Assembly: GCA_029263315.1 (NCBI GenBank)
Contig: JAJCXR010000003.1
Span: 64,615 to 128,614, forward strand
Length of the DNA stretch: 64,000 nucleotides
Direction: 5' to 3'
DNA from: Acidobacteriota bacterium
GTDB taxonomy: Bacteria; Acidobacteriota; Thermoanaerobaculia; Multivoradales; J023
Every line of letters starts with the position of its first letter. The first letter of the stretch is position 1. This document shows positions 9,632 through 64,000 of the stretch, piece by piece. A model generated the notes under the pieces. The model had not been told where the DNA came from. It did not search any database and saw nothing but the letters and a program-made list of their open reading frames with translations. The position numbers and the translations under genes are program-made.

Positions 9632-9709
9632 CGAAGACTCCCCCAGACGGACTCTTCCCTCAGCTCAGATAAGACGTTCTCCCCCAGAAAAGACGCTGGA
9701 GCGTAAACC

Positions 9710-10603: not shown

Positions 10604-10606
10604 TTC

Positions 10607-11374: not shown

Positions 11375-11389
11375 GTCCAACTAGCCAAA

Positions 11390-11530: not shown

Positions 11531-11651
11531 GAGTGACGCTCAGCTGAGACCGACTGCGCTGTCGCCGCTGACGGCATAGTCGAGCCGCGTCTTCTCAAGG
11601 GGGACTTGGTATACTGAACGGGCAAAGTCATCCACCCGAGGCTCACTGCGC

Positions 11652-11826: not shown

Positions 11827-11957
11827 GGATGTACTCAGGTTCTACCCAACGTTTCTGGGCAGTCTCAGGCGGCTCAGGAATTGTGGCTGGATATCGGATA
11901 GTACTCTTTATGAGGCGCTTACCGTATCATAAAACGGATACTTTGACCCACCAAAAC

Positions 11958-11974
11958 TTGACTTACAAAGTCAA
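11958..11974. promoter_or_regulatory. Perfect 6-bp inverted repeat TTGACTtacaaAGTCAA, 27 nt upstream of the peroxiredoxin start. Candidate operator in an AT-rich promoter region.
   Basis: Direct reading. It sits in a locally low-GC segment (11.85-12.0 kb). Confidence 0.4.
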
Positions 11975-12000
11975 CCAAACAACAACTAGGGGTTACAATC

Positions 12001-12651
12001 ATGTCCATTCGCATTGACGACATCGCTCCAGACTTCACTGTCAATTCCACCGCTGGCACGATCCAACTTCACGATTGGATCGGTGATAGCTATGCCATCC
12101 TCTTTTCGCATCCAAAGGATTTTACGCCGGTATGTACGACTGAATTCGGTGCCGTTGCTCAGCTGGTTCCTGAATTTGCCAAACGCAATACCAAAGTCAT
12201 GGGCGTATCTGTGGACAACGTTGAAGAGCACATAAAATGGAAGCGCGACATCGAAGCCTTCGCCGGTGCTCCTGCCGACTTTCCGATTATCGACGATACT
12301 TCGTTGCATGTATCCAAACTGTACGACATGCTGCCAGCGGGTGCCTATCTGACCGAGAATCGTACGCCTGTCGACAGCGCCACTGTGCGGACTGTATTCA
12401 TCATCGGTCCTGACAAGAAGGTTCGCCTAACCATGTCATATCCGATGTCAGTAGGCCGCAACTTCGCGGAGATTCTGCGTGCCTTGGATGCAATCCAGCT
12501 CACCGATGGTGCACCTGTTGCTACGCCCGCCAACTGGGTTCCCGGTCAGGACGTGATAGTCGGGCTGGGCCTGAACGATGAGCAGGCGAAAGAAAAGTTC
12601 GGAGATATCAATATTAAGCTGCCCTATTTGCGATTTACAAAAAGCCCCTGA
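12001..12651 (+). CDS. 1-Cys peroxiredoxin (Prx6-type thiol peroxidase)
   Basis: FSHPKDFTPVCTTE peroxidatic Cys motif; full-length Prx6-like fold of 216 aa. GC is noticeably lower than the surrounding DNA. Confidence 0.85.
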   Translation: MSIRIDDIAPDFTVNSTAGTIQLHDWIGDSYAILFSHPKDFTPVCTTEFGAVAQLVPEFAKRNTKVMGVSVDNVEEHIKWKRDIEAFAGAPADFPIIDDTSLHVSKLYDMLPAGAYLTENRTPVDSATVRTVFIIGPDKKVRLTMSYPMSVGRNFAEILRALDAIQLTDGAPVATPANWVPGQDVIVGLGLNDEQAKEKFGDINIKLPYLRFTKSP

Positions 12652-39202: not shown

Positions 39203-39292
39203 CGCTCGCCCCTTGGCGGGCCCCCCTTGCTCGCTCCAAGGGGCCTCCGTTGGCACCGATTCTGGTAAATCTGTACGGGAACTAGCTTGGAA
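39203..39292. repeat. Copy B of the roughly 80-bp direct repeat. It contains an internal inverted repeat gccccttgg…ccaaggggc and spans the activator stop codon.
   Basis: Direct reading. Confidence 0.6.
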
Positions 39293-40982: not shown

Positions 40983-41249
40983 CGCGACATTCCTTCCCAC
41001 AAGGACGCCGCAACCCGCGACGCCAACGCGTTAGCCAAATCGCCGCAGCCTGCCTTGCACCACGGCCACGATCGACGGTCGCCGTCGCGTTGGGCCCTGG
41101 GATCTGGCTAGGACTGCCGAGAAACAACGCCGATGTCGACATCGGCGATCACTTTCATAATCGCCTTACTTTCTCACATTTGAAACGCAATTTCACACTC
41201 ATTTCTCAGACATGAGAACCAAGTCTTCATTATTGTTGGGCATTAGTTT

Positions 41250-45426: not shown

Positions 45427-45674
45427 CGGGGATGGTGCACCGTCCCCAGGGGACACATCAGAGTAAGCCATGCTTCGCAGATTATCACGTCTCCGCCTCC
45501 TCCCAAGGGGCAGTTTGAGCACCGATCACAGCCCCCGACGAAGGGCGGTCGCAGCACCCGATATCCAACCGATCAGGCTTCGTAATAGTCGCTGTAAGAA
45601 TCGTGGTGCTATCTTTTCCTTACACTCCCGGCAGGGCCCCTGTACCCTGCTCAACACTCCAAGAGGTCCTATTT

Positions 45675-48600: not shown

Positions 48601-49661
48601 TCCCGTTGCCGGTGACCGTCGCCGTCGAGCGCCAAGGCGCCACCTTCACCGTCTCCTACAGCACCGACGACGGTGTGACGTGGATTCAGCCGACGGGTGC
48701 CCTCGGGGGCTCGGTGGCCATCGACGCCATGGACGCGACCTATGTCGGCATGGCCACCGCCTCCTACGAGTCGACCCAGGTGATGACGGCATCCTTCGAC
48801 GACTTCAACCTGTGCGGCTACGGTGGCGTGCCGGAGATCCTGCCGCCCCCCACCTCCGGCTGCGACGAAACCGAGGAATTCGACGTCATCTACCTGATGG
48901 ACCTGTCCGGTAGCATGGCGTCCTACTTCCAGAACGCCGGTACCGGGACGCGCCTCGAGGCTAGCCAGATCGCCCTGTCGAGCCTCAACGATTCCCTGGC
49001 CCTGCGGGGTGACGGCAGCCGGGCTGCCCTCATCACCTTCAGCGGTTTCCTCACCCCCGAGGAAAACCTGGCCGACGGCTACATCGTGCAGTCTGGCTTG
49101 ACCACCGACTTCGCCAGCCTGGAGACCTTGATCCAGAGCTTCGCGGTGGGCGATCTCCAAAACCTCGACACGACCCCGACGCCGCTGGCCTTGGAGGGTG
49201 CCCTGGAGACCCTCCTGGCGCAGGCGGATCCGACCCACACTCCGGCGGTGGTCTTGGTCACCGACGGTATCCCCAACATCGACATCCTCGGTGAAGGTGG
49301 CCCCGGGATCTATGACCTGGACGAAATCCAAGGCATCGTCCTCTACGACGGCGTGGGCGGCTTCCTGCCGGCCCTCGATGTCGCCCTGCTCGGCAACTAC
49401 AACCCCGGGCTCGACAACTTCGATGGCCAGGTCATGTCCGATGCCATGGTGCAGCTCGAAGGCCTGCGCACGGCGTTCCCCAGCATCGAGATCTACGGCG
49501 TCGCCCTGCAGGGCAACGGCTCGGATCTCGGCACCTTCAACGAAGGCCTGCTCGACTACGGGGCCTACTTGACCAACGCTCTATCGTTCAGCGTCAACAA
49601 CGCCGACGAGTTGGCCACCGCCATGGGGGTGCTCGAGTTGCAGCTCAGCTGCACACCTTGA
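45675..49661 (+). CDS. Giant secreted protein (1328 aa): signal peptide; Gly/His-rich low-complexity region; duplicated roughly 110-aa CPR(T/S)PGYWKNH…[11 protein letters not shown] domain separated by a poly-Asp run; two vWA (MIDAS DxSxS) modules; Cna-B/SdrD-B-like domain; LamG/beta-sandwich-like region
   Basis: Start at ATG 45675 with SD aagagg. Signal [25 protein letters not shown]. (GGGGHGGGG)n. 29 consecutive Asp. [12 protein letters not shown] and [42 protein letters not shown]. Confidence 0.7.
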   Translation: [1328 protein letters not shown]

Positions 49662-50145: not shown

Positions 50146-53100
50146 ATGCTGCGCAAACCGGTATTCTGGGTGTCTTTTGTCGCCCTCTCCATCGTCGCCT
50201 GGTGGTTCACCCTAAGCACCTTCGAGCAGGCCTACCCGGTGGTCGATCTAGAGCTGACGATGAACCGCAGCGGCGCCCTGGCCAAGGCCGAGGACCTGGC
50301 CTCCCGTCATGGTTGGGGACCACCAGGGGCGACACAGGCAGTCGCCTTCGAGCGGGACGAGACCGTGCAGGTCTTCGTCGAGCTCGAGGCCGGCGGCAAA
50401 GCCGCCTTTCAGGAGATGCTGGCGGCAGATCTCTATGCTCCCTATAGCTGGAAGGTCCGCCGATTCCAGCCCGGCCATACGACGCAGGGCGAGGTCCGTT
50501 TCACTCCGGACGGCGAGCCCTACGGCTTTCGCATCAAGCTGCCAGAAGACGCTCCGGGAGCCAGTTTGGAACCGGCGGCGGCCCGTCGCTTGGCCGAGGA
50601 TGCCGCCGCCGGTGACTGGCGCGTCCACTTCGCCGACTTCGAGCTCATCGAAGGCTCGCAGGAAATGCGTCCCGGCGGACGCACCGACCACACGTTTGTC
50701 TACCAACGTCAGGCACAAAGCCTGGGCGAAGCTCGCTACCGACTCCGCTTGGTGGTCAGCGGCGACCAACTCAGCGAGCTCAGCCACAGCGTCGCCATTC
50801 CGGAGACCTTCCATCGCCGCTTGGCGCAGCTGCGGGCCGGCAATCAGGCCCTCTCCTCCGCCGGCAGGATCGTCATGCTGGTGCTGCTGCTCGGCGGCGG
50901 CTGTCTGACGGGCCTCCTCTTCCTTCTCCGACGACGGGCCCTGTTGTGGCGACAGGCATTGGTTTGGGGGGCAACGATCGGCCTGCTGCAGCTGATGGCC
51001 GGGCTCAATCGATGGCCCCTTTGGTGGATGGAGTACGACACCGCCGTCGGAGCCAAGAGTTTTGTCATCGAAACGATCTTCAACCTGTTTTCAGAGTGCG
51101 TTTGGCTCACCTTGGGCACGGCGTTCGTTTTCATGGCAGCCGAGGGCTTGACCCGCTATGCCCTGCCCGATCAGATTCAGCTCTGGCGTTCTGCGTCGGC
51201 GGCGGCAAGCCCACAGATCCTCGGCCGAACCGCAGCGGCCTACCTGCTGGTTGGCCCCTACTGTGCCTACAAAGTGGCTTTCTTTCTCTTCACTTCCCAA
51301 AACCTCGGTTGGTGGTCACCGGCCTCCCACCTTTCGGACCCCAACATCCTCGCCACGTGGTTACCGTGGCTCAACCCCATCGCCGCAGCCCTGCGGGCTG
51401 GATTCGCCGAGGAATGCCTGTTCCGGGCCCTGCCGTTGGCCATCGCCACGCTGCTCGGGCGGCGCTTCGGACAACCGCGCCTGTGGATCGGCGCCACCTT
51501 GATACTGCAAGCCGTGATCTTCGGCGCCTCTCACGCCAACTATCCCAACCTGCCAGCCCATGCGCGATTGGTGGAGCTGATCCTGCCTTCCATTCTCTAT
51601 GGCTTGATCTACTTGCGCTTCGGCCTGTTGCCGGGAATCCTCCTGCACTTCGCCTTCGATGTCCTGGCCTTTGGCCTGCCGGTGCTCGTCTCCACCGCCC
51701 CCGGCGCGGCGATCCACCTGACAATGCTGGCATTGATCACCCTCCTCCCCATGGCAGTGGTACTGCTGGCGCGCTGGCGTCAAGGTCGCTGGGGCGAGGT
51801 CGACGGGACCCTCCTCAACGGCTCATGGGTACCCCCACCTGCCACTGCGGAGACGCCAGGACGATGGGCACCGAGCCGCCAACTGGACCTGCCAGGCTAC
51901 CGCTGGCTCTATGTAGCGGCGGCTGCGGGGGCCGCTCTGTGGCTGGCGACGAGTCGCTTCGAGTCCGATGCTCCACGCCTCCAGGTCGATCGGAGCACAG
52001 CCATCACGGCCGCCCGGCAAGAGGCCCAGAACCTGGGCTGGGAGCTGAGCCCCCATGCCACCGTGCTCGGCCAAGTGCGCTTCGAGCTCGATGATGGCCA
52101 CCGCTTTGTCTGGCAGCAAGGGGGACGCCAACTCTATGATTCATTGCTGGGCAGCTACCTGCGTCCGCCACGTTGGCACTTCCGTTTTGTCAACTTCAGC
52201 GGCGAGGTTACGGGGCGGGCCGAAGAGCACCAGATATGGATCGATGGGAGGGGCCAAGCCTTTCAGCACTGGCATCGACTACCGGAGGACCGGGACGGCG
52301 CCAACCTCGAGGCCGGGAACGCCAGAACCTTGGCCCTGGCAGCGCTGGCCAGCCGCTACGGCCTGGGGCCAGACCAGCGGATCGAGATATCCGCCCTTCC
52401 GTCACAACGCCCCTCCCGCCGGGATTGGCAATTCACCTTCGAAGACCCCACCGTGCTGCCCGAGACCCCCGGCAAAGCGCTGGCGACCGTCCTCATCGCG
52501 GGCCACGAGGTGATCAGCTCTTTCCGTCAAATCCAACCACCGGAATCGTGGCGCCGGGCCGAAAGGGAACATGCTGCGATCGGCGAAGTGCTGCACCAGG
52601 GGAGCCGACTGTGCTTTTTCTTGGTCTGCCTCGGCGGACTACTGGCGGCGGTGTACCGCTGGAGCCAGCGACGGCTCGCCGGTCGAGGGACCATCCTTTC
52701 CTTGACCCTTCTCAGCCTGCTGGCGGTTGTCATCCTGATCGACCTCTGGCCCCTTCTCCAGGCCGAGCTATCCACCTCCCGGGCTCCCGGCCTGCAGATG
52801 ACAGCTAAGCTCAAGGGCATCCTACCGCCCGCCATCGGCATCCTGGTCGCCGTGGCCCTGCAGATCGGCTTCACCCTGCGCTGGCCTCCGTTGCGCACCC
52901 CGAAAAACCTTCGAGCCGCGTTGCTCCCGGGCTTAGCCCTGGGCACTGTCTGGGCCGGCCTGGCGGCGCTCGTTCTGCGACTGAGGCCGTCTTCGCTGCC
53001 CATCTGGCCGGACTTCACCGTCGCCGGCAGCGCGCTACCTTGGCTGGGCGCCAGCCTGCATCCGCTGGCAACTTTTTTCATCGTCGCTTTGCCAACAGTC

Positions 53101-53556
53101 TGGATCGTCGTCGGTGCGGACCACCTCACCGCCGGATGGCAGCGGCGGCGCGGTTTGGCAGCCTTGCTGATGATCGGTTTGGCGATCGGCTTCACGGGTT
53201 GGTCGGTCGACGACCCATCCCTGTGGTTCTGGCAAGGCTTGCTCTTGGGGGGCTCCCTCCTCGCAGCCTACATCCTGGTACTTCGTCACCAGCTCTCCCT
53301 GGTCGTGCCCGCCGTCGCCGGCGCGGTGGCCTGGCAAACCCTCGGCCAAGGGATTCTGCGGGCTTACCCTGGGGCCTTGCTCGGCAACCTACTTGCCGTC
53401 GTCGTGATCCTGCTGGTGGCTCTGTGGTGGGTACGGGCTCTGGCCGACGACACCATGCCCGCCGCAAGGTCAGTCGAAGCAGAAAGCGCAGGACAACCTA
53501 ATCTTGGTGCAGGGCTTCGATCGGATCCACCGAGGCGGCACGAACGGCAGGTATGA
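50146..53556 (+). CDS. Giant polytopic membrane protein (1136 aa) with an embedded CPBP (CAAX protease / bacteriocin-processing, Abi) intramembrane metalloprotease domain
   Basis: CPBP motifs in order: EECLFRALP (motif 1), FGASHANYP (motif 2), HFAFDVLAF (motif 3). More than 15 predicted transmembrane segments. Large soluble domains at residues 30-230 and 560-750. Confidence 0.65.
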   Translation: MLRKPVFWVSFVALSIVAWWFTLSTFEQAYPVVDLELTMNRSGALAKAEDLASRHGWGPPGATQAVAFERDETVQVFVELEAGGKAAFQEMLAADLYAPYSWKVRRFQPGHTTQGEVRFTPDGEPYGFRIKLPEDAPGASLEPAAARRLAEDAAAGDWRVHFADFELIEGSQEMRPGGRTDHTFVYQRQAQSLGEARYRLRLVVSGDQLSELSHSVAIPETFHRRLAQLRAGNQALSSAGRIVMLVLLLGGGCLTGLLFLLRRRALLWRQALVWGATIGLLQLMAGLNRWPLWWMEYDTAVGAKSFVIETIFNLFSECVWLTLGTAFVFMAAEGLTRYALPDQIQLWRSASAAASPQILGRTAAAYLLVGPYCAYKVAFFLFTSQNLGWWSPASHLSDPNILATWLPWLNPIAAALRAGFAEECLFRALPLAIATLLGRRFGQPRLWIGATLILQAVIFGASHANYPNLPAHARLVELILPSILYGLIYLRFGLLPGILLHFAFDVLAFGLPVLVSTAPGAAIHLTMLALITLLPMAVVLLARWRQGRWGEVDGTLLNGSWVPPPATAETPGRWAPSRQLDLPGYRWLYVAAAAGAALWLATSRFESDAPRLQVDRSTAITAARQEAQNLGWELSPHATVLGQVRFELDDGHRFVWQQGGRQLYDSLLGSYLRPPRWHFRFVNFSGEVTGRAEEHQIWIDGRGQAFQHWHRLPEDRDGANLEAGNARTLALAALASRYGLGPDQRIEISALPSQRPSRRDWQFTFEDPTVLPETPGKALATVLIAGHEVISSFRQIQPPESWRRAEREHAAIGEVLHQGSRLCFFLVCLGGLLAAVYRWSQRRLAGRGTILSLTLLSLLAVVILIDLWPLLQAELSTSRAPGLQMTAKLKGILPPAIGILVAVALQIGFTLRWPPLRTPKNLRAALLPGLALGTVWAGLAALVLRLRPSSLPIWPDFTVAGSALPWLGASLHPLATFFIVALPTVWIVVGADHLTAGWQRRRGLAALLMIGLAIGFTGWSVDDPSLWFWQGLLLGGSLLAAYILVLRHQLSLVVPAVAGAVAWQTLGQGILRAYPGALLGNLLAVVVILLVALWWVRALADDTMPAARSVEAESAGQPNLGAGLRSDPPRRHERQV

Positions 53557-55936
53557 AGCAAGCGACCGCGGCGACCGACAGCAGCAGGAGAGCGGTCAAA
53601 CCAAACGTCATCGGATCCATCGGCTGCAGGCGAAAGAGGGCTCCCCGCAGGGCGAATCCCAAAGGCACGGCCAAGGCCAATCCGATCAGCAAGCCGACGG
53701 ACGCCCGCATCAGGCTCTGTCTGAGGACCAAGGTGAGAACGTCACGGGAGGTGCCGCCCAGAGCCATACGCACCCCCATTTCTCGGGTACGCTGCGCGAC
53801 CCGAAAAGCGATCACACCATACAGCCCGATGGTGGCCAAGAGAACCGCCGCGGCACCGAAAATGCTGAACATGGTCCCCAACAGAATGGGGAAGAACATG
53901 GCCCGGGAGACCACCTCCTGCATCGGCCGGAGATAAAACAACGGCAGGTTGGGGTCGATCTCTCGCACCGTCTGCCGCAACGTCTCGGCAAAGGCCATCG
54001 GTTCCTGAGCTGTCCTGACCACAATCCAAGCCTCGGATTTCGGATACTGGTCAAAGGGAAAATAAATCGCCGGAGCGTCGCCGGGATTGTCAAAGTCTCC
54101 GAAGTGCAGGTTGGGAGCCACGCCGACCACCTCCGCCCAACCGCTATCCGGATCCTCGGGCTCGTTCTTGCCCCGCCACAGACGCAGCCGTTGACCGATG
54201 GCATTCTCGCCCGGCCATTGCTGTCTGGCCAATGCCTCGCTGACCAAGACCACCGCTGGAGCCGCTTGGCGATCCGACGCCGTCACGCCACGGCCATGGC
54301 GGACGGCGACACCGAGGGTTTTCAAATAACCGGGGGTGATTCTCAGGAACCGGGCCACCGGCATATCGGACGCTTCGTCGTAGGCAGTTCCCCGCACCAG
54401 GTACCTCGCCGACACCGAAGTGGTGGTATCCAAAGGCAGAATCGTCCCGATACCCGCCGCGCTGACCCCAGGCTTGGCGGCCAGCCTTGACTCCAAATCC
54501 TCAAAGAAGGCCTGCCAATCTTCCCGCTCCGGGTACTTCGCATCGAACAACGCTAGGCGGGCGGTCAATATCTGCTGCGGCTCAAGATGTAGATCGTAGT
54601 TGTTGATCGTGGCCACGGTCCGCACCATCAGACCGGCACCGATCAACAGGGGAAACGACACCGCCAGTTGGATGATGACCAACTTACGGCTCAGCCAACC
54701 CATGCGGAAGCTGCTCGAACCGCGAGCCGCATCCTGTAGCACCCGGTTCAGGTCCGGCTTTGACGCCTGCCAGGCCGGTCCCAAGCCGGCCGCCAGCGCC
54801 GCCAGCACGGTGACACCAAGGGTGAAGAACAACACCCGGCCATCGATCTGAAACGACACCCAGAAAGGCGGATCCATATCGGCGATGCTGGCGCTCAGAG
54901 CCCCGACGGCGAGATGCGCCAGCATCACACCGACGGCGACTCCGCCGGTCGCCAACAAGCCCGCATCCAACAGCACTTGACCCAGCGTTTGAGCACGGCT
55001 GGCCCCTAAGGCCGAGCGGATCGCCAGCTCATGTCCCCGCGATGCGGCGCGGACGATCAACAGATTCGCCACGTTGATCGAAGCGATCAGCAAGACCAGC
55101 AGCGTCGCCGCCAACATCACCCCCAGCAACAGTTGGGCGCGTTGGTCGATGAAGGAGTCGACATAGGGCTTGACCGCCACTCCGATGCCCTTGTTGGCCT
55201 CGGGATACTGTTCCTCCAGGCGTCGGCCGATGGTCTCCATCTCAGCCGCCGCCTGTTTGATGGAGACGCCGTCGGCCAAACGGCCAAAGACCCCGAGGCG
55301 CATTCCGGAGCCCCGCTCCGTCTCACCGGGCGACAACTGCAAAGGCAACCAAACGTCGTGCCGGAAAGGGAAACGGAAACCCGGTGGAAGCACACCGATC
55401 ACCGTCGACGGTTCGGCGTTGACCCGCACGACCCGGCCCACGATGTCGGGGTCGGAGTCGTAGCGCTGTCGCCACACATGGTGACCGATGAGCAAAACAG
55501 GGGGTGCCCCCGGCCGTTCGTCCTCAGCGCGGAATCCCTGCCCTAGGAAAGGCTTGACCCGCAGCAGGTCGAGGAAGCTAGCCGAGATCCTGACGCCGTG
55601 GTAGCGCTCCGGCAGGTACTCGTCGCTCAGGTTGACGGTGATCGGATCGAATCCGGCCAAAGCTTCGAAACTCTGCTGCTGGCTCCGCCAGTCGACAAAA
55701 TCATGCTCGCTGACCCGCGTTCCGCTGGGGGACGGATTGAAATCCCGCTGCTCCAACTGCAGCAAACGCTCGGATTCTTCGAAGGGCAAACCGCGCAAAA
55801 CCGCCCCGTCGATCACCGCAAACATCGAGACGGTCAGGCCGATCCCCAACGCCATGGCCAAGACGGCCCCGAGACTGGAACCTGGGTTCTTGATCAATCG
55901 CCGGAGACTGTAACGAAGCTCGCTGAAAAGGCTCAT
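53498..55936 (-). CDS. FtsX-family ABC transporter permease with duplicated domains (ADOP / MacB-like, no fused ATPase)
   Basis: ADOP-type N-terminus MSLFSELRYSLRRLIKNPG. Two FtsX 4-TM modules, each preceded by a large periplasmic domain. 812 aa. Confidence 0.8.
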   Translation of the reverse strand: MSLFSELRYSLRRLIKNPGSSLGAVLAMALGIGLTVSMFAVIDGAVLRGLPFEESERLLQLEQRDFNPSPSGTRVSEHDFVDWRSQQQSFEALAGFDPITVNLSDEYLPERYHGVRISASFLDLLRVKPFLGQGFRAEDERPGAPPVLLIGHHVWRQRYDSDPDIVGRVVRVNAEPSTVIGVLPPGFRFPFRHDVWLPLQLSPGETERGSGMRLGVFGRLADGVSIKQAAAEMETIGRRLEEQYPEANKGIGVAVKPYVDSFIDQRAQLLLGVMLAATLLVLLIASINVANLLIVRAASRGHELAIRSALGASRAQTLGQVLLDAGLLATGGVAVGVMLAHLAVGALSASIADMDPPFWVSFQIDGRVLFFTLGVTVLAALAAGLGPAWQASKPDLNRVLQDAARGSSSFRMGWLSRKLVIIQLAVSFPLLIGAGLMVRTVATINNYDLHLEPQQILTARLALFDAKYPEREDWQAFFEDLESRLAAKPGVSAAGIGTILPLDTTTSVSARYLVRGTAYDEASDMPVARFLRITPGYLKTLGVAVRHGRGVTASDRQAAPAVVLVSEALARQQWPGENAIGQRLRLWRGKNEPEDPDSGWAEVVGVAPNLHFGDFDNPGDAPAIYFPFDQYPKSEAWIVVRTAQEPMAFAETLRQTVREIDPNLPLFYLRPMQEVVSRAMFFPILLGTMFSIFGAAAVLLATIGLYGVIAFRVAQRTREMGVRMALGGTSRDVLTLVLRQSLMRASVGLLIGLALAVPLGFALRGALFRLQPMDPMTFGLTALLLLSVAAVACFIPAVRAASVDPIEALHQD

Positions 55937-55937
55937 C

Positions 55938-56891
55938 TCAAGTCATTGGGGCCGGCGACGATCGCGCCAACGCCTCAATGCAGAGGGCTGTCGTGATCTC
56001 CTCCGAACCGTAATACCCTTCATCGAAATCAATGTAGTAGGCCGCCCGCGGCCAACTGCCGTCCTCGTTCTGGCGATCGAGCAAGTAGCGTACCGCTGCG
56101 GCGAGGATCGATGGCTCAGCATACCCAAGATTCAGCAGGCTGGCCACCGCCATGGCGGTGTGAAGGACACTGCCCCCAAGCCCCCCATCGCCGTCTTGGC
56201 GAGCCAGAATTCGTTCGCTGGCCGCTGACCGTGCCGCCGCCAAGCGCCTTACGCCATGGAAGTAAGCCCGCGACAACACATAGAAAAAGAGTAGGTCGTC
56301 GACACCGTAGACAGTGCGTTTGCCCTCCTCGCCGTCGGTGGTGAGATGGACCAAATAGTCACACGCCGCCAGGGTCTCCGGTCGTTCGCCCAGGTAGAGA
56401 AGCACGTTGGCGTTGACCAGACCACACACATTGTTGGCCCCACCGTCGCTGAGGAAGGTGCGGAATCGACCGTCGGCATCGCGGTTGAGCAGAAAGAGCC
56501 GATAGTTGAGCCCCAACAGCAAGTAGTCGTGAGCGTCCTTCAGCACATAGGCCGCGCAAGCGGTGTCGTCGAGGTCCGGCGGCAAGGTTTCGGCATTCCC
56601 CAGGCTGAAGTAGCGCCACAAACCCGGGGCTTCCATTTCCCCGAGCAGAAAGGTGGAACCACGGGAGACGATGGAGGGCACCCGAAGGTCGTCACTGTAA
56701 GCCAACGAGTAGAGGATATAGGAGGTGCCATAGGGCGTGCTCTTGAGTTGAGGATTGGCTTCCATCGCCAGGTCACTATAACGATAGGTCTTGAGCTCGC
56801 CGCTGGGCAACTGTTGCCGATCGAGAAAACCGACCGCGCGGGACAGAGCTGTGCGGACCCGCGTCGCTGCCGCTTCCTCAGCCGGATTCAT
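55938..56891 (-). CDS. Prenyltransferase / squalene-oxidase repeat (alpha/alpha-toroid) protein, 317 aa
   Basis: LLDRQNEDGSWP is the canonical QxxDGSW repeat of prenyltransferase-beta / terpene-cyclase folds. Further degenerate repeats (LNRDADGRF, LARQDGDGGLGG). Confidence 0.55.
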   Translation of the reverse strand: MNPAEEAAATRVRTALSRAVGFLDRQQLPSGELKTYRYSDLAMEANPQLKSTPYGTSYILYSLAYSDDLRVPSIVSRGSTFLLGEMEAPGLWRYFSLGNAETLPPDLDDTACAAYVLKDAHDYLLLGLNYRLFLLNRDADGRFRTFLSDGGANNVCGLVNANVLLYLGERPETLAACDYLVHLTTDGEEGKRTVYGVDDLLFFYVLSRAYFHGVRRLAAARSAASERILARQDGDGGLGGSVLHTAMAVASLLNLGYAEPSILAAAVRYLLDRQNEDGSWPRAAYYIDFDEGYYGSEEITTALCIEALARSSPAPMT

Positions 56892-58156
56892 GGCGTCGAC
56901 TCCAGCTCTTTTTTATCCGCCCCCACCGCCCGCCGTGCCGCGACCCAAGTGGAGACCAAACGGCCGACCGAGACCAGGGGGCGGAGGACAATCGAGCGAA
57001 ACATACGCCACCCTATGTAAACCATGAACAGGGCCATGAAGCCGGACATCAACAGCGAGGAAAGACTCACCTCCGGGGATCCGGCGGCGAAGGCCATCAC
57101 CTTGTCGGGAAACAGTCGCACGGAGCTCCAGACGCGAGGGGCGATCTTCCAAATGAAAAAACCCCACACCGCAATGCTCAAGACCGAATAGACGGCCAGC
57201 GTGGCAGTCACCCGTTCCGACCACGGTAACTCCTCCGCCGGCCGGCCCCGCAAGCGATGCCAATAGTGCTTGATGATGCGGCTAGGCTGACGACTGAGAT
57301 TGGTGACTCCTAGGGCATCCGCCAGCATCCAATAGCCGTCGAACTTGAAAATCGGGTTCAGCGAAAACAGCGAGCTGCCGGCGATCATCAAGATGCCGAC
57401 CCCGAGGGGCTCCCAACCGGTGAGGCTGTATGCCACGAGATAGACAGCCGCCGTCAACCATTGGAAGTAGAGGCCCCCGAGATCCACTACGACCCGCTGC
57501 TTGCGTTGCAGGCGCCAGGCCGAGCTGACGTCGCTGTAGAGGGCAGGGTAGATCAAATAGAAGGTGAATCCGATGTCACTGGGCCGGGCTCCATAGTAGG
57601 CGCAGGCCGTGGCATGGCCCAGCTCATGGAACACGATCGACAACATCAGGAGCGCGTAGCCGGCCCAGAAACTAGAGTCGTGAAACTGCTTGGTCAGGGG
57701 TTCGGCCCCCCAAATCGCAAAACCCATGGCGACGCTGAGAAGTAGCGCGGCGACCACTTGGGGCTTGAATAGGGGCGTCAGGACAGAGACGATCCGCACC
57801 ACCGCGACTTCGGGTAGGAGCCGAATGCGGAACCAGAAACCCAAGGGATTGTCGTTGGCATTGTCTTCAATGCTCTCGATACGCTCGAGCAATTTCTGAT
57901 ACTTCGCCTCGAGCTCCTCACCGGAAATGGTGCTCCCTTGGGACCGCGACAGTGCCGCGGCGATCTCCTCGGAGCTGACACCCGATTGCCGGAGCTGCAA
58001 TAGCCGATGGGCGCTGGCCGACAAACGCATGTTGCTGCCGTTACGACCGCTCAACAAATAGGTCGGTTTGGCCTCGGAGATATCGACCTGCCGACGCTCC
58101 GTCAAGCCGATCCAGCGGGGTCCTTCCACCGTCTCTTGGGCGCCGCCGGTTGTCAT
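56888..58156 (-). CDS. Membrane-embedded zinc metalloprotease, M50/site-2-protease-like (HExxH within a transmembrane segment), with N-terminal cytoplasmic domain
   Basis: LSIVFHELGHATACAYYG in a hydrophobic segment. About 8 transmembrane segments. Start at MTTGG (58156), avoiding overlap; the track ORF to 58201 is over-extended. Confidence 0.55.
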   Translation of the reverse strand: MTTGGAQETVEGPRWIGLTERRQVDISEAKPTYLLSGRNGSNMRLSASAHRLLQLRQSGVSSEEIAAALSRSQGSTISGEELEAKYQKLLERIESIEDNANDNPLGFWFRIRLLPEVAVVRIVSVLTPLFKPQVVAALLLSVAMGFAIWGAEPLTKQFHDSSFWAGYALLMLSIVFHELGHATACAYYGARPSDIGFTFYLIYPALYSDVSSAWRLQRKQRVVVDLGGLYFQWLTAAVYLVAYSLTGWEPLGVGILMIAGSSLFSLNPIFKFDGYWMLADALGVTNLSRQPSRIIKHYWHRLRGRPAEELPWSERVTATLAVYSVLSIAVWGFFIWKIAPRVWSSVRLFPDKVMAFAAGSPEVSLSSLLMSGFMALFMVYIGWRMFRSIVLRPLVSVGRLVSTWVAARRAVGADKKELESTP

Positions 58157-60102
58157 GGCGTCGCCTCTTCCATCGTCGAGGCGCGAGCGAGCCGATGCCA
58201 AAGGACTGCCGAGCGTAGAACAAAGGCCGTCGTCAGATCACAGATACCTGATACCCCCTGAATTCGCTGCAGCAAGCTCTGCGCCCGCTCGAGCTCGTCC
58301 AGGTCAATGGCCCGGGTGCGGACGCGGGCCCGCCCTTGGGCCAAGGCGAGCCCCTGAAGCGCCAAGGCAGCGCTCATAGCGTCGCTGGCCGACGCGCCCC
58401 AGTCGGCGCTTCGCCACGCCTGCCGCAGGAAAGACTCGGCCCGTCCCACCACCGAAGATGTCGAACGCAGGGCGACCAAACAACGCAAGCAAGCCACGGT
58501 GGGATACAGACCACGATAGGCGCTGCTGCGCCAACTACCGTCGGCTTGCTGCTGCTCTTCGAGCCAGGTCAAACCCCGCTCGATGGGCTCCGCAAATCGC
58601 TGCCCGTCGAAGAGAGCCAGGGCTTCCAAGAGTTGGGCCGTGACCGCCGCATCCGGCTCACCCACGGGCAGCGTCTCACCCTGTGGCGATCGCCGGATCC
58701 AAGTCTCGACGGCCCCATCGGGTCGCAACACACCAAAATCTTCGAGCTGAGACAGGAGTTGGGCACAGTGTTGCTCGGCATCTTCTCGGCGTCCGGCGCG
58801 TAGTAGGATGCGCAGAATCAAACCCAGATGATCGCTGTCGGCAGGTAGCCCCATGGAGACCGCAGAATAGCTCCAGCCGCCACCGGGGCGGCGGCGGTAG
58901 ACGAGATAGTCCACTTGGCTTTGAATCAGCGGTTGCAGTTGGCCTTCCAAGAGGCTGTCGACGTCGCAGAGGGCATCGGCCGCCATGGCCAATGGCAGCA
59001 CATCGCCTACTTTCGAAGTGACGTCTCGCCCTGCGTCGGTGGGCCGCCTTCCACCGCTAGCACCCCATCGGTGCAAGATTCGCTGCACCGCATCCCATGC
59101 CACCTCCTGCCAGGCATCCGAGGGCGGTGGCAGGGCTACGGCAAGCCGACGGGTTGTCGCCTGCCGCTTCTCGGCGATGTGCTCGAGTTGTTGCAACACA
59201 GCCTGGCAGCGTTCGCGGATCGCCGACGTTTGCCGGTGCCAGAGCAAATCCGGATAGCCCTCGGTCAAGCGCTCCGACTCGGCGATGGCTTCCAGGGCAA
59301 GCCTCATGGTGTATCCCACATGGCCACCGTAGTATATCTCGCGACGGGTGCGCTCTCCGTCGGCTCGCAGTTGCCGACGGTCGCCAGCAAAGGCCGCAGC
59401 GGTGACGCGGCTGAGCAGCAACGAAGGAAAACCACTTTCAAGATCCGCCCGCCAGTCGGTCAGATCATCGAGCATCTGTCGAGCTGTGTAATAGCGTTCG
59501 ATGCTTTGGGTCAACGGTTCGTAGCACCGATCGTCCTTGGCCAACGCCGCCAGTCCCGCGACGGAAACTTTGGCCAGGCCGCACTTGCCGACCGCGACCG
59601 AGACCGCCTGCGCTTCCGTGAAACGCTCCCAGCTCGCCTCCGGACTAGCCAGCTCACGTTCCAGGAGACAGGCTTCGGTATAGGCGACCCAATAGTCGCG
59701 GAAACGGTTCCAAAAGGGGTCCGTCGATTCGATAAGGGGATGCAGGAGGCGATAGCCCTCGAACTGCATGACTTCGATGCCCAAGACATCGCCGGTGATG
59801 TGCTCGGTCTCTTCGTCCATCACTCGATCTGCAACGATGATGGAATCGAAGATCAGGCCGGCACCTCGGGCTAGAGGCTCGACCTGGGCCAGCTTCAAGT
59901 CTGGAAAGGCATCGAGGAAAAGGTAGGGGTAACCGTGGTAGATCGAGTCGGGGTCGCTGCATTGGTGTCTCACACCCTTCGGCCATGCCCCGACCGCCAG
60001 CGCACGGGTCGCCGCGGAGTCGACCATCAGGCGCTGTATCTCTGGCGGAAAAAGGCCTGATGACACGTCCTTCGGAGGCGACGCCTTGGTGTCGCTGGTC
60101 AT
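58153..60102 (-). CDS. Terpene-cyclase / prenyltransferase-like alpha/alpha-toroid repeat protein (649 aa) with an unassigned N-terminal domain
   Basis: C-terminal half holds QxxDGSW-type repeats (LEEQQQADGSWRS, YRRRPGGGWSY). The N-terminal 300 aa are unassigned and include an acidic segment QMLDDLTDWRADLESG. Confidence 0.5.
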   Translation of the reverse strand: MTSDTKASPPKDVSSGLFPPEIQRLMVDSAATRALAVGAWPKGVRHQCSDPDSIYHGYPYLFLDAFPDLKLAQVEPLARGAGLIFDSIIVADRVMDEETEHITGDVLGIEVMQFEGYRLLHPLIESTDPFWNRFRDYWVAYTEACLLERELASPEASWERFTEAQAVSVAVGKCGLAKVSVAGLAALAKDDRCYEPLTQSIERYYTARQMLDDLTDWRADLESGFPSLLLSRVTAAAFAGDRRQLRADGERTRREIYYGGHVGYTMRLALEAIAESERLTEGYPDLLWHRQTSAIRERCQAVLQQLEHIAEKRQATTRRLAVALPPPSDAWQEVAWDAVQRILHRWGASGGRRPTDAGRDVTSKVGDVLPLAMAADALCDVDSLLEGQLQPLIQSQVDYLVYRRRPGGGWSYSAVSMGLPADSDHLGLILRILLRAGRREDAEQHCAQLLSQLEDFGVLRPDGAVETWIRRSPQGETLPVGEPDAAVTAQLLEALALFDGQRFAEPIERGLTWLEEQQQADGSWRSSAYRGLYPTVACLRCLVALRSTSSVVGRAESFLRQAWRSADWGASASDAMSAALALQGLALAQGRARVRTRAIDLDELERAQSLLQRIQGVSGICDLTTAFVLRSAVLWHRLARASTMEEATP

Positions 60103-60151
60103 CGGGCAGGCTCGGGCATCAATCGGGTTCCTCCCCGTGGCACCGCAACGT

Positions 60152-60190
60152 CAAAGGCAAAAGATGGGCGCGACCTTTGACGCGCCCATC
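60152..60190 (-). terminator. Rho-independent terminator or attenuator directly downstream of the precursor-peptide gene (minus-strand hairpin gatgggcgcg-tcaaaggt-cgcgcccatc then TTTTGCCTTTG)
   Basis: Direct reading. It sits between the precursor stop (60197) and the next minus-strand gene start (60102). Confidence 0.6.
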
Positions 60191-60196
60191 ATCTTC

Positions 60197-60376
60197 TCAA
60201 ACCAAAACCGGCTCGGAAGGCTCACTCGGCTCGACGCTGAAAGACCCACAATTCACGTCGCACCACAGGCCATCGGCGCCCACCGCAGCGGCGAGCTCAA
60301 TGCGGCGTTCCAGATCCTCGACGTCGAGATCCTCAGCGTTCAGGGATTCAATCTCGAGAAGTTTCTCATCTTTCAT
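60197..60376 (-). CDS. RiPP-like precursor peptide (59 aa): acidic helical leader plus Cys-containing core
   Basis: MKDEKLLEIESLNAEDLDVEDLERRIELAAAVG | ADGLWCDVNCGSFSVEPSEPSEPVLV. Strong SD gaaaggaagaagcg before ATG 60376 (the track start at 60406 is a TTG over-extension). Own terminator. Flanked by a radical SAM/SPASM enzyme, a protease and a permease. Local AT-rich DNA. Confidence 0.6.
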   Translation of the reverse strand: MKDEKLLEIESLNAEDLDVEDLERRIELAAAVGADGLWCDVNCGSFSVEPSEPSEPVLV

Positions 60377-61015
60377 CGCTTCTTCCTTTCTGAAAAGGGG
60401 TTTCAAGGATCGAGCATGGCCTTCCTAGTGGTCAGGCTATACCCTAGGCTACACGCCTTCTTTATCTTCGGCCCTTGCCGACCGAAGTGCCGAATCTCGG
60501 CTTCAACCTTATCTTCAACATTCCGCGTAACCAACCCATCCGGCAGCCACCTCACTTGGCAGCCGAAGCAAGCCGACTGCACAGACTTCATCACGAGCGT
60601 GGAGCTGTGCTACCCATCTCCTTTGCCGAAATCGTACTTCTCAAGAAACTATTGTGCTTCAGTTGAATTCGACGCACCTTATCCTTATCCATAGCCAGGC
60701 CGACCCCACTCTGGATTGGCGTATAGGTAACGCCTTACAAGCTTTCAACTTACCTAGCACGATATTTGAGACCTGAGAAAATGTCAATAGCGAAGTTGAA
60801 AGGTGAGTGTTTCCGAGAGCTGAGAATCGGGCGGCATGCCGGGCCGCCGGACAAGAGATCGCAAACCCGAGGGATCCGGTTTGAAACGGCTGGCCATCCT
60901 GTACAATCTGAGGTTGATCGTTCTAATCAAGTTTTGGCAGCTCAACCTTGGCGGTTGAGCCTGAGCAAGGCTACGGCAATCAACTCGTGTCAGCTCGGCC
61001 CCACCGGAGAATCGA

Positions 61016-61999
61016 ATGAGCCAGAAAACAACCTCGAAGCAAACTTCTGGACAGTCGACGCCAGACGACGCCTCCGCCATCGATTTGCACAACCTCTCAG
61101 AACCTCTGTTGCAACGATTGCAGCAGCTAGAAGCCTTGAATGGGTACGACCAATGTTTCCACCGCGCCGTGCCCAACAACTACGTCTATATGCTGATCAA
61201 TGCCAGCTATCCACTGGAAGACTACTTGGCCGGCATTGCCACCAACACGGCACCACTCAATCGTGCCAATGGCCGTGTCTATCGATACTGTGTGGACAAG
61301 GTTAAGGAGCTACCACGGCAGGCTGTGCTCGGAAACGATGAGCTGATTCAATGGTTGGGCGGATGGAAAAAAACGACAACCACCTCGGTCAATCTCAAAG
61401 GGGTGGCCTTTGCCGAGAAGGTTTTTGCCTTTCTCGCAGACGCAGGCCTCGACGCCCGACGCCGCTGGCGAACAGAGGCTCCTGAGATGCATGACATGTT
61501 CACGCGGCAGATCCCCCACAAGATCGAGCATCTTCTGCGACTCAATCTGAGCATCCCCCATGACCTGGTGACCCAGTCCCTACAACGGCTGATGGATGAG
61601 GTATTCGGGGCTTCCGATACATTCTCATTGATCGAACGGGTTGAGGTCGCCAAACCCAACCTCAGCAATGACACCTCAGTGACGAATTACCCAACCATCA
61701 TCCTTTACCTCGTCGTTGATGCTAACGAGCCGGCGCGCCGTGACGAAGTCGATCAGCTGTTGCGTCTACTTCATCCGTGGGCTGCCGGTTTTGAGCACGG
61801 CCTCGGGGCGGAGTCGGACTTCGCCGACCTATGGTACCCATTCCTCACAGTTACCCAAGGGTACAAGCTTTGGAAACGGTACTTGCGGGTGGTGGGATTG
61901 CTCGACGAAGTCTACGACCGGGACTTCAACTATGCCTATTTGAGAGGCAGGCCAACACTTAGGAACTTTCCGCAAGTCCTATCCCAGTACCGGCCTTAG
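61016..61999 (+). CDS. Hypothetical protein (327 aa), no recognisable domain, low-GC gene inside the RiPP-like locus
   Basis: Long ORF with SD ggaga. GC clearly below the genome average. Converges on the radical SAM gene with a 13-bp gap. Confidence 0.5.
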   Translation: MSQKTTSKQTSGQSTPDDASAIDLHNLSEPLLQRLQQLEALNGYDQCFHRAVPNNYVYMLINASYPLEDYLAGIATNTAPLNRANGRVYRYCVDKVKELPRQAVLGNDELIQWLGGWKKTTTTSVNLKGVAFAEKVFAFLADAGLDARRRWRTEAPEMHDMFTRQIPHKIEHLLRLNLSIPHDLVTQSLQRLMDEVFGASDTFSLIERVEVAKPNLSNDTSVTNYPTIILYLVVDANEPARRDEVDQLLRLLHPWAAGFEHGLGAESDFADLWYPFLTVTQGYKLWKRYLRVVGLLDEVYDRDFNYAYLRGRPTLRNFPQVLSQYRP

Positions 62000-62012
62000 T
62001 ACACCTATCCTC

Positions 62013-63521
62013 CTACTGGTCGCAGACCCGATCGACGTGAGCGCTGAGGGCTTCGCCGGAGGTGTAAGCTTGGAAAGCGTCGGCAACACTAGAACGAAAG
62101 CGCGACGCAAAGGCATCGCAAAAGTTCATGTGCAAGCTGCCGGTCTTGCCCTCGGCCAAGACCGCACATCCACCTCCGCAGTGCATGTTATAACGGCACT
62201 TACGGCAGGCGGGGTTGCTCGCCACCGTCCGACTCCGCCACAATTTCTCATTGTCGCCGCGGATGTGTAGCTCTCCCTCTTCGGAGATGTAGCCGAGACG
62301 AATGTTGGGGTTTCCGGTGCGTTCCCAACAGGCGTAGATGTCACCGAAGGCATCGAAGATGTACATCCCGACATGGGCACTGCAGAAACTCTCGCGAACC
62401 GGTGGCATACCGCTGCCATTGCCCGATTCGAGGAATAAGCGGTGGGCTTGATTGCGAGTGGAATCGTCCGGCCGCCCCAAGACCTTTATACTCGGATGCT
62501 CATCACGCATCGCAGCCAACGCCTGATCGAGCTCATAACTGTTCATCGTCGTCTGCTTGGAAACGTTGTCGTTGCCGGGCTGAATAGGAGCCGTATAGGC
62601 GCTGAAAGTGGGCATCTCGGGCCAACCTTCGGCGTAAATCGCCTCCGCCACCGCAGGCATTTGATCGATGTTGTTGCGATCGACATTGAGCCGCACGCTG
62701 ATACCGACGCCTTTTTCCAGGGCCCAGGTCACGTTGCGTCGGATCTTCTCCCAAGAGCCGGAGCCATCGGCATAGATGCGCCGTCGGTCGTGCTCTTCCG
62801 GGGGGCCATCCAGGGTCACCTGGATATTGGCGATCCGCTGCGGTGAGATGAGGTCGCCATAGGCCTCGATTTCCGTCGCATTGCTGACCGCCGAAAAGGT
62901 GGCTGGACCAAGCTCCAAGGCCTTGTCGACAATGTTCTGAATGGTTGGCAGATTCGCCGCCAGCAGGGGCTCGCCGCCGAAAAATAGTATCGAGCGACTG
63001 GGCGCCTGGCCGTCCTTGATGCCGTGTCTAGCCTCAATTTGAGGCATCGCACCGAAAATCCGATCTATCATCTCGGGCTTGATGGTGCGCAGCAGATGGT
63101 TGTACTTGGGATTCGTCCGCATGTGATCTTGGAAACAATAAGCACAGCGCAGATTGCAATTGTAGGTTGGCATGATGACGTAGCTCGGCATCTTCGCCAC
63201 CTTCTGCTGATGGATCTTGGTGGCCATCTTGACCAACAACTCTTCCTCTTCCTCGACACTCATATTGGTCAAATAACCGCGACGTATCAGGGTTTCGAGG
63301 GCCCCATCGGACGGCGCCTTCACCTCCTCCTCGACGGTCGACGGCTCAGAAACCCAAGCGCCGTAAAGAGGTTGAGGAGCCCGGCGAGCTTCCAGCGACC
63401 GCAAGTAGTTTGCTACTTTGCGTGAAACCTTGTCATAGGCCCCGGTATAACCGTGCACGAGGAGCATTTCTTCGCTGGTGTCCGGTAAGTCAACATAGAT
63501 CGTGTAGCTACTCGCGCGCAT
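62013..63521 (-). CDS. Radical SAM enzyme with C-terminal SPASM domain and about 130-aa N-terminal extension (possible RiPP recognition element)
   Basis: CNLRCAYC (CxxxCxxC). SPASM auxiliary-cluster cysteines C…CWERTG…CRKCRYNMHCGGGCAV. Start at ATG 63521 with SD aaggagg; the track ORF to 63608 is over-extended. Confidence 0.8.
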   Translation of the reverse strand: MRASSYTIYVDLPDTSEEMLLVHGYTGAYDKVSRKVANYLRSLEARRAPQPLYGAWVSEPSTVEEEVKAPSDGALETLIRRGYLTNMSVEEEEELLVKMATKIHQQKVAKMPSYVIMPTYNCNLRCAYCFQDHMRTNPKYNHLLRTIKPEMIDRIFGAMPQIEARHGIKDGQAPSRSILFFGGEPLLAANLPTIQNIVDKALELGPATFSAVSNATEIEAYGDLISPQRIANIQVTLDGPPEEHDRRRIYADGSGSWEKIRRNVTWALEKGVGISVRLNVDRNNIDQMPAVAEAIYAEGWPEMPTFSAYTAPIQPGNDNVSKQTTMNSYELDQALAAMRDEHPSIKVLGRPDDSTRNQAHRLFLESGNGSGMPPVRESFCSAHVGMYIFDAFGDIYACWERTGNPNIRLGYISEEGELHIRGDNEKLWRSRTVASNPACRKCRYNMHCGGGCAVLAEGKTGSLHMNFCDAFASRFRSSVADAFQAYTSGEALSAHVDRVCDQ

Positions 63522-64000
63522 TGTTACTCCTCCTTGAGCCCACACGGACTCTAACGCCTGCGTCAACCTGTCGACGGGGCTTCTACTTCTAGAGATGGGA
63601 GAGACCACGACGAGGCTACACGCTTGCGGGGGAACCTGTCAAGACGAAAAGACCTCCCGCGATGGTGCCCAGCACGCCACGGCCGTGAAGGCGTCAATGC
63701 CCTAATCGACAATACCCTTCGGGTTGGTCGGCCGAGAATGGCCTTTGGCGACAACTTCGAGCGCTACGCTGCTGGGTCAAAGACGCCGATGGCATGCCGC
63801 TGGGTCAGCTCTTCAGGTGGCGATGGGAGCAAGGCCATCTTGCTCCGTCCCCCACTGGGGAGTGCAGCGTCGCTGCTAGCAGTCTGTGGTGAAAGTGCTG
63901 CGCGAATGAGAGCGAGATTTTTTTCGTCAGAACAAGGCGCAGAATTGCATGAATATTGGTGATCTTCAGAGATTCTGTAACACAGTTCTGGCGGAAAAGG

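Follow-up and report, generated by a model that had tools for sequence, protein, structure and literature searches.

We examined a gene cluster for a ribosomally synthesised, post-translationally modified peptide (RiPP) in a 64,000-nucleotide stretch of contig JAJCXR010000003.1 from an Acidobacteriota bacterium; this whole stretch is called the window below. The cluster comprises a precursor peptide of 59 amino acids (aa), a radical S-adenosylmethionine (rSAM) enzyme with a SPASM domain, a 649-aa protein in which a prenyltransferase-like P domain is fused to a terpene cyclase-like C domain (the PC protein), an intramembrane protease with an HExxH motif, a separate 317-aa terpene cyclase and a permease of the ADOP family (Table 1). 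An initial annotation had proposed a RiPP-type maturation and export locus here, and the genes, the 59-aa precursor, its ribosome-binding site (RBS) and its hairpin terminator all lay where it had placed them.

Table 1. Features of the cluster and its borders, numbered from the first letter of the window
Feature	Position	Strand	Remarks
Radical SAM/SPASM gene	63521-62013	-	502 aa; longest open reading frame (ORF) from 63608
327-aa ORF	61016-61999	+	In low-GC stretch; convergent with rSAM gene
Sigma-70-like promoter match, TTGACA-17-TATCGT	60759-60787	-	About 385 nt upstream of precursor ATG
Precursor peptide ORF	60376-60197	-	59 aa
Hairpin and T-run, intrinsic terminator or attenuator	60190-60153	-	Directly after precursor stop codon
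PC protein	60102-58153	-	649 aa; fusion of P domain and C domain
P domain of PC protein, residues 1 to about 345	60102-59068	-	Trans-isoprenyl-diphosphate-synthase-like prenyltransferase
C domain of PC protein, residues about 365 to 649	59010-58153	-	Single alpha/alpha-barrel class II terpene cyclase fold
HExxH intramembrane metalloprotease	58156-56888	-	422 aa; longest ORF 437 aa
Stand-alone single-domain class II terpene cyclase	56891-55938	-	317 aa; PPD106-L-D108-D109-T-A
ADOP-family duplicated FtsX/MacB-type permease	55936-53498	-	812 aa
Polytopic membrane protein	50146-53556	+	1136 aa; convergent with permease; CPBP-like motifs by eye

The precursor peptide and its operon

The precursor, annotated as a coding sequence in the source records, reads MKDEKLLEIESLNAEDLDVEDLERRIELAAAVGADGLWCDVNCGSFSVEPSEPSEPVLV. 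Its ATG is preceded at 5–6 nt by GGAAG, which serves as RBS, and the hairpin behind it has 10 pairs (8 of them G–C), a loop of 8 nt and the tail TTTTGCCTTT. The leader spans residues 1 to about 33 and contains the motif SLNAEDLDVEDLERRIEL; the core starts at about G33/A34 and reads G-L-W38-C39-D-V-N42-C43-G. This precursor with its W38 sits 94 nt upstream of the PC gene. From there the PC, HExxH, cyclase and ADOP genes follow one another with successive overlaps of 1–4 nt, the HExxH start overlapping the PC stop codon, and because of these overlaps we regard the four genes as translationally coupled and as one operon.

Related loci were gathered by exact look-ups and by a scan in which each GTDB species was represented by a single genome and which gave 79 loci. 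For the small ORFs in these loci, we combined tblastn with a leader hidden Markov model (HMM) built from four precursors. The consensus of the leader HMM across loci was E[IV]xSLNxxDLD[VI]EELExRLE[LM]A, with SLNxxDLDVEELERRLEL as its conserved stretch. At least 40 loci gave leader matches, and these invariably lay directly upstream of the PC gene or next to the rSAM gene. Multiple precursor copies were common, with six in Ktedonosporobacter rubrisoli, five in L041 and three to four in L026 and L027. The 59-aa ORF, singled out as a precursor in the initial annotation, is a genuine and conserved precursor linked to maturation genes.

The regions behind the leader share a marked composition. Trp was present in 41 of 48 distinct post-leader regions, in 34 of them within the first 20 residues after the leader motif, and Cys was present in 43 of the 48 distinct cores, with a Trp or Tyr adjacent to a Cys in 34. 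At the third residue after a Cys, Asn accounted for 30% and Asp for 18%, together 48% against a background of 14%. Cys recurs at the fourth or fifth residue, so that a C-x-x-N/D(-x)-C unit is repeated; examples are CGANACAGNGC, CGADCGVLCGANC and C39-D-V-N42-C43 of the window. The cores of three Nostoc loci (L013, L014, L017), such as GWEIFGPNEPI and GWVIDGPNGP, contain Trp and lack Cys.

The maturation enzymes and their occurrence across phyla

Both the 649-aa and the 317-aa proteins had been described in the initial annotation as terpene-cyclase-like toroid proteins. The terpene cyclase likeness was borne out; as a description of the whole 649-aa protein it was incomplete, the N-terminal half being a trans-isoprenyl-diphosphate-synthase-like (trans-IDS-like) prenyltransferase domain. 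In Pfam, the 649-aa protein matched SQHop_cyclase_C (1.3e-7) and had no match to polyprenyl_synt at E < 0.01. We then searched a profile of 22 sequences of its family against PDB sequences. Residues 61–213 of the profile matched polyprenyl synthetases (4lob at 2.6e-5, 3oyr and 4jxn), and its C-terminal part (residues about 400–649) matched squalene-hopene cyclase at 2.8e-28 and the single-domain cyclases 8pak/8paj. The N-terminal part has a trans-IDS fold with two Asp-rich motifs, which in the window are D92xxxD96 and Q209-M-L-D212-D213-L-T-D216. In the P-domain family D92xxxD96 and Q209-M-x-D212-D213-L-x-D216-W, followed by PSLLL, are nearly invariant, and Q209 is kept within Q-[ML]-x-D-D-L-x-D in nearly all of about 80 loci. 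The C domain has an MstE-like monodomain class II cyclase fold, with terpene cyclases as its top structural matches. The 649-aa family is rare, forming 24 clusters among 5.8 billion proteins. Relatives of the P domain among 1.84 billion representatives numbered 541, 263 and 83 clusters (50% identity) at E <= 1e-3, 1e-10 and 1e-30, respectively, about half of them fused (>600 aa) and about half stand-alone (about 310 aa).

The 317-aa protein is a single alpha/alpha-barrel class II cyclase with the canonical DxDD(T) acid motif. It matched Pfam SQHop_cyclase_C above the cut-off (1.6e-6), and a 28-sequence profile of its family matched the cyclase domain of drimenol synthase (3.3e-25) and AstC (1.8e-14) in the PDB. 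Its AF2 model (pLDDT 92.7) gave Foldseek matches to drimenol synthase (TM 0.81) and MstE (TM 0.75), and it also superposes on 8pak/8paj. D106, L107, D108 and T110 are invariant in the 28 homologues and D109 is found in at least 90%. We considered hopanoid or squalene-cyclase metabolism, a grouping that the initial annotation had raised, and rejected it for both toroid proteins: TIGR01507 gave 28.5 and 22.7 bits against a cut-off of 431, each protein has one barrel, and both are linked to the peptide.

The acid motif of the fused C domain differs between clades. It is DADD in almost all of them, and D-S/T/A-D-H or more degenerate in the clade of the window, where sister loci have DAWH, DANH, DGAH and SAHH. 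In the window it reads D422-S-D424-H425, with the central Asp kept and the third Asp replaced by His; since D424 is kept, this C domain may retain some activity. A stand-alone cyclase with PPDLDDT[AS] occurs in every locus of the window's clade (L002, L004, L008, L010 and the window itself). Such a cyclase is also carried by four of the loci with P-domain-only PC homologues (L042, L071, L075, L076), and it was not found in loci with a fused DADD motif. This distribution suggests that the separate 317-aa enzyme has taken over catalysis or has a share in it.

The rSAM protein carries CNLRCAYC (CxxxCxxC) and a C-terminal SPASM domain, and matched Pfam Radical_SAM PF04055 (1.5e-12, 48.5 bits against a cut-off of 29.5) and NCBIfam SPASM TIGR04085 (49.6 bits against 27). 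Its best equivalog matches were PapB (NF047865; 6e-36, 124.3 bits against 340) and TIGR04463 (5.7e-35, 120.9 bits against 525). It also resembled the RiPP maturase models CefB, geopeptide and DynA, all at scores far below the cut-offs. Its best PDB match was CteB, the SCIFF thioether maturase (5wgg, 4.6e-13). The anaerobic sulfatase maturase model scored much lower, at 61.3 bits against a cut-off of 349. Neighbourhoods of the related loci were compared by tblastn with the window proteins and by clustering of all neighbouring ORFs; the clustering merged the rSAM and PC families, and the rSAM counts were therefore taken from tblastn. By this measure SPASM rSAM homologues with 29–78% identity adjoin PC genes in about 40 loci, in keeping with the peptide maturase role assigned to this enzyme in the initial annotation. 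In L004, L008 and L010 (43–44% identical) the ADOP, sigma-54 activator, rSAM, precursor, PC, HExxH and cyclase genes are co-directional in this order, so the rSAM linkage is genuine despite the separation seen in the window. The nearest relatives of the enzyme are thioether formers and the cores carry the C-x-x-N/D unit, from which we infer, as the most economical prediction, that its product would be a Cys-to-Asn/Asp thioether ring.

The HExxH protein contains FHELGH and has a weak match to Pfam Peptidase_M50. It scored 121.7 bits (3.9e-35) with NCBIfam daptide_HExxH (NF041824; cut-off 300) and 54.9 bits (9.9e-15) with the YydH/LiaK model (cut-off 225), and because it falls under both curated cut-offs we place it in a related but distinct family. 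Homologues adjoin the PC gene in 45 loci. Given its resemblance to the daptide and YydH/LiaK RiPP proteases, it is probably the leader peptidase, as had been suggested for this M50-like protein. The permease was correctly recognised as a MacB-like FtsX/ADOP protein: it reached 813.3 bits with TIGR03434 (cut-off 622.3) and contains MacB_PCD and FtsX domains twice each. An ADOP permease is present in nine related loci, and it probably acts as an exporter or a self-protection protein.

The precursor, PC and HExxH genes occur together in about 45 loci spread over at least ten phyla, and about 40 of these also have a SPASM rSAM gene. The taxa include Thermoanaerobaculia and other Acidobacteriota, Chloroflexota, Cyanothece (Cyanobacteria), Myxococcota, Sulfidibacter, Ignavibacteria/Bacteroidota, Bacillota, Armatimonadota, Actinomycetota, Eisenbacteria and Vulcanimicrobiota. 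Because leader and gene set recur in dozens of unrelated genomes, their association goes beyond chance, and the locus is a genuine RiPP maturation and export cluster, as first proposed. The three Nostoc loci consist only of precursor, PC and HExxH genes flanked by unrelated genes, and no rSAM gene was found in up to 10 kb of their flanks. The Cys-free cores of the second system type described below likewise keep Trp, and the SPASM rSAM gene goes with Cys-rich cores. Trp thus follows the PC enzyme and Cys the SPASM enzyme, apart from the exceptions given below.

Proposed pathway, known relatives and alternatives

The initial annotation had regarded the combination as an undescribed RiPP class. 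This did not stand, since fused prenyltransferase–terpene cyclase maturases were published in 2024. A 2026 review (PMC13290415) summarises the work of Hubrich et al. (Chem 10:3224 (2024)) on two bifunctional RiPP maturases, NctPC (an ABBA-type prenyltransferase with a cyclase) and ChrPC (a trans-IDS-like P domain with an MstE-like C domain). By its account, ChrPC prenylates an internal Trp, using C10–C20 donors, and the prenyl chain is cyclised by its C domain; ComQ, PalQ, ChrPC and Ord1 have in common a Gln, associated with Trp recognition, immediately ahead of the second Asp-rich motif. The PC protein of the window resembles ChrPC in having a trans-IDS-like P domain fused to an MstE-like monodomain class II cyclase in the same domain order, in lying beside a leader-plus-core precursor with an internal Trp, and in the Gln and DDxxD motif of its P domain. 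It differs in being combined with a SPASM rSAM enzyme and Cys-rich C-x-x-N/D cores as well as with an HExxH intramembrane protease and an ADOP permease. In its fused C domain DSDH takes the place of DxDD, and the canonical motif is found on a second, stand-alone cyclase.

Other characterised systems match parts of the cluster. ComQ/ComX and PalQ/PalX comprise trans-IDS-like Trp prenyltransferases of Bacillus and Paenibacillus peptides (PMC10853753, PMC13290415). They are likewise isoprenoid-synthase-fold enzymes that alkylate Trp of a ribosomal peptide, with the second Asp-rich motif conserved and reused for substrate binding; in contrast to the window system, ComQ and PalQ are single-domain proteins without a terpene cyclase, rSAM enzyme or HExxH protease, and their peptides have other leaders, that of PalX being of the NHLP type. 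The single alpha/alpha-barrel fold of the 317-aa protein and of the C domain is also that of MstE, AstC/drimenol synthase and other single-domain class II terpene cyclases; the 317-aa protein has their DxDD(T) motif as well. The substrates of those enzymes are small prenyl molecules (meroterpenoids, farnesyl diphosphate), whereas that of the window enzymes is presumed to be a peptide-bound prenyl chain. Among thioether-forming ranthipeptide maturases, PapB (freyrasin) is the best equivalog match of the rSAM enzyme and CteB (SCIFF/thermocellin) its best PDB match. Both share its rSAM core and SPASM domain and act on Cys-rich cores with periodic spacing from Cys to an acidic or amide residue. 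The window enzyme lies far below the equivalog cut-offs, belongs with another leader and is coupled to terpenoid enzymes. The PapB core spacing is C-x3-D, unlike the C-x-x-N/D of the window family. Proteases of the daptide MpaP and YydH/LiaK types are, like the window protein, polytopic, carry HExxH in a transmembrane segment and belong to RiPP operons; the difference lies in its scores under both curated cut-offs. In the literature searched, no paper pairing a SPASM rSAM enzyme with a PC maturase was found.

On the observed domain identities, folds, motifs and cross-phylum gene linkage, we consider it likely that the locus is a biosynthetic gene cluster for a cross-linked, terpenoid-modified ribosomal peptide. 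Peptide prenylation, put forward as a guess in the initial annotation, is the best-supported mechanism. The pathway, in which the acceptor residue, the length of the prenyl group, the chemistry of the cross-link, the sequence of the steps and the bioactivity are inferred, would run as follows. The conserved acidic leader of the 59-aa precursor would be bound first. The P domain would then ionise a prenyl diphosphate, probably of C15–C20, and alkylate the indole of core Trp38; in favour of such a supply, polyprenyl synthase genes occur in eight related loci. A class II cyclase would protonate the distal double bond and thereby cyclise the chain, chiefly through the 317-aa enzyme with its intact DLDDT and possibly together with the altered fused C domain. 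The rSAM/SPASM enzyme would form one or more intrapeptide Cys thioether rings, most likely from Cys39 to Asn42 in the C-x-x-N/D unit. Finally, the HExxH intramembrane protease would cut off the leader, and the ADOP permease would export the product or protect the producer.

Several observations weigh against this pathway. The likeness to ChrPC is one of architecture and motifs only, taken from its description. A Gln three residues before DDxxD is found in ordinary chain-elongating synthases too and alone does not discriminate. There is no polyprenyl synthase gene within the window's cluster. The rSAM enzyme scores below every named equivalog cut-off, and in the window its gene is a separate transcription unit, taken off the precursor transcript by the intervening 327-aa ORF on the + strand. 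Two loci (L029, L037) have cores with two Cys and no rSAM gene seen in the flank. Finally, 7 of the 48 cores lack Trp and have Tyr or only Cys.

These Trp-free cores, together with the frequent placing of an aromatic residue next to Cys, would suit a P domain that prenylates a Cys sulfur in a CaaX-like manner, or a Tyr, with CPBP/Rce1-like proteases trimming after the lipidated residue. Rce1-like CPBP genes are indeed present as separate genes in six related loci, and the neighbouring 1136-aa protein shows CPBP-like motifs. However, the Cys-free cores of the Nostoc loci and of the second system type described below retain Trp (GWEIF, GWVID, GWHV) alongside a PC gene, CPBP proteins are common bacteriocin immunity proteins, and the CPBP call on the 1136-aa protein has no statistical support. 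Moreover, according to PMC13290415 all trans-IDS-like peptide prenyltransferases characterised so far target Trp. We therefore regard prenylation at Cys or Tyr as unlikely. Slightly less probable still is that the product is an ordinary rSAM thioether peptide of the ranthipeptide or sactipeptide kind, and that the isoprenoid-fold proteins make or bind a separate terpenoid lipid or act as scaffold or immunity proteins. The rSAM/SPASM enzyme, the Cys-rich C-x-x-N/D cores, the HExxH protease and the permease would suffice for such a peptide, and outside RiPP contexts there are more distant homologues both of the 649-aa protein (in Hyalangium, L006 and L007) and of the 317-aa protein (L090, L091). 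Against it, the PC gene stays with the precursor and HExxH genes in the Nostoc loci, which have neither an rSAM gene nor Cys in the core; the Asp motifs with which the P domain binds metal, and a cyclase DxDD, are kept under selection in all loci; and the PC, HExxH and cyclase genes are translationally coupled.

A lanthipeptide-like pathway, in which the alpha/alpha-toroid proteins would be LanC-type cyclases adding Cys thiols to dehydrated Ser/Thr, seemed conceivable because LanC is also an alpha/alpha barrel and some cores, as in L004, are rich in Cys, Ser and Thr. The Pfam and NCBIfam scans gave no LANC_like match, there is no dehydratase gene, the top structural matches are terpene cyclases and not LanC, and many cores, for example CWANACGINLA, are without Ser or Thr. 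We rejected the LanC reading on the Pfam and fold results and consider it highly improbable. Within the preferred terpenoid pathway, a bolder version would see an uncharacterised, phylum-spanning RiPP family whose peptide is stapled by the rSAM enzyme through C-x-x-N/D thioethers and carries a polycyclic terpene on Trp. In Thermoanaerobaculia the degenerate C domain and the DLDDT cyclase would pair like the beta-gamma didomain of squalene-hopene cyclase, giving a scaffold unlike the 2024 examples, and the rSAM enzyme might even join Cys to the prenylated Trp or to the terpene. We hold this version to be doubtful, though less so than the alternatives above.

Cluster borders, variant loci and significance

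The borders of the cluster were compared with those of related loci. The spacer between the 327-aa ORF and the precursor ORF is 640 bp long and contains the sigma-70-like match of Table 1. It is the sole such match in 11 kb, and since shuffled sequence averages 3.1 matches, it counts as weak evidence for a promoter. In L004 (6372-7886), L008 (6357-7871) and L010, a regulator with GAF, sigma-54-activator and HTH_8 domains lies between the ADOP permease and rSAM genes. The window cluster has no sigma-54-activator gene; an FHA-type sigma-54 activator is encoded about 20 kb off (39282-41000). Sigma-54 control of the precursor, suggested by the activator in the sister loci, was rejected, no -24/-12 match being found upstream of the precursor in the window. 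A 63-aa ORF just upstream of the precursor (60403-60594, minus strand; called as 62 aa) is among the genes called in the Logan assembly. Related loci have no homologue of it, and it is probably no true gene.

The GC dip noted in the initial annotation is real (0.52–0.55 at 60.5–62.0 kb against 0.60–0.66 in the surroundings), and horizontal acquisition, as drawn from it, is speculation. The 327-aa ORF, in the lowest-GC stretch, gave no match in Pfam and NCBIfam scans. Of the related loci compared by tblastn, a single one, the closest (L002), has it conserved, at the same position and with 53% identity; there a DDE transposase sits about 200 bp away from the homologous ORF. The 327-aa ORF may mark an edge of the cluster that is mobile or recently acquired, and its membership of the cluster is uncertain. 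On the other side, the 1136-aa protein is conserved in L002 at the same position (51% identity) and shows three motifs of CPBP/Rce1-type proteases (EECLFR, FGASH and HFAFD). An assignment to CPBP was rejected, as Pfam gave no match, NCBIfam ABC_perm_CPBP an E of 0.09 and BLASTP against an Rce1-like neighbour an E of 1.6; whether this protein belongs to the cluster is likewise uncertain. A 1352-aa protein with VWA and SdrD B-like domains (45603-49661, plus strand) adjoins the cluster, and the uracil phosphoribosyltransferase, kynureninase, 5'-nucleotidase and SbcCD genes further upstream appear to be unrelated housekeeping genes.

Variant loci were also found. In a second system type, a PC-like gene is accompanied by a polyprenyl synthase and a B12-binding rSAM gene (L009 at 6748-12031, L016, L018, L019); in L009 and L016 there is in addition a small ORF that encodes an EELESRL motif and a core, GWHVxVxVS, without Cys. 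In the actinobacterial loci L056–L066, a P-domain-only homologue lies beside a B12-rSAM gene. In L089 (7750-14379), an 80-aa ORF, a PC-like 726-aa protein, a polyprenyl synthase, a nitroreductase-family protein, a methyltransferase and a YcaO protein are encoded in a row, which looks like a different RiPP class, of the azoline type, with a terpenoid module. The abstract by Hubrich and colleagues is said to predict cyclic terpene units in several RiPP families, and L089 fits. A homologue of the 317-aa protein with 39% identity is found in Cupriavidus numazuensis (L090, 1-7936), where its gene starts 4 nt inside the end of a gene for a 2693-aa RHS-repeat/YD-shell toxin, a position usually held by an immunity gene or a toxin-tip partner.

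Further genes recur around the core set. An EryCIII-like glycosyltransferase (about 420 aa) is encoded in 12 related clusters (L022, L025, L036, L038–L042, L050, L051, L054, L067), a pair of ABC ATPase and FtsX permease in other related clusters, and a TPR protein in Bacteroidota and Ignavibacteria-type loci (L048, L049, L052, L053, L058, L061). Together with the CPBP genes, these look like modular tailoring and export add-ons.

This type of natural product has thus been known since 2024 and is not a categorically new class, and the widespread sub-family described here appears uncharacterised in the literature searched. Peptide–terpene hybrids with a cyclised prenyl chain were first reported in 2024, and only two of their maturases have been characterised. 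The interest of the sub-family lies in its breadth, in its being unmodelled in Pfam and NCBIfam, where neither the precursor nor the PC enzyme has a model, and in its combination of two rare chemistries. The leader motif and the minimal three-gene unit provide a map for discovery, to which the family adds modular rSAM stapling, glycosyltransferase, B12-rSAM and polyprenyl synthase genes. The degenerate fused cyclase with its stand-alone partner offers an example of sub-functionalisation, and the enzymes could serve the site-specific lipidation and terpenoid decoration of peptides.

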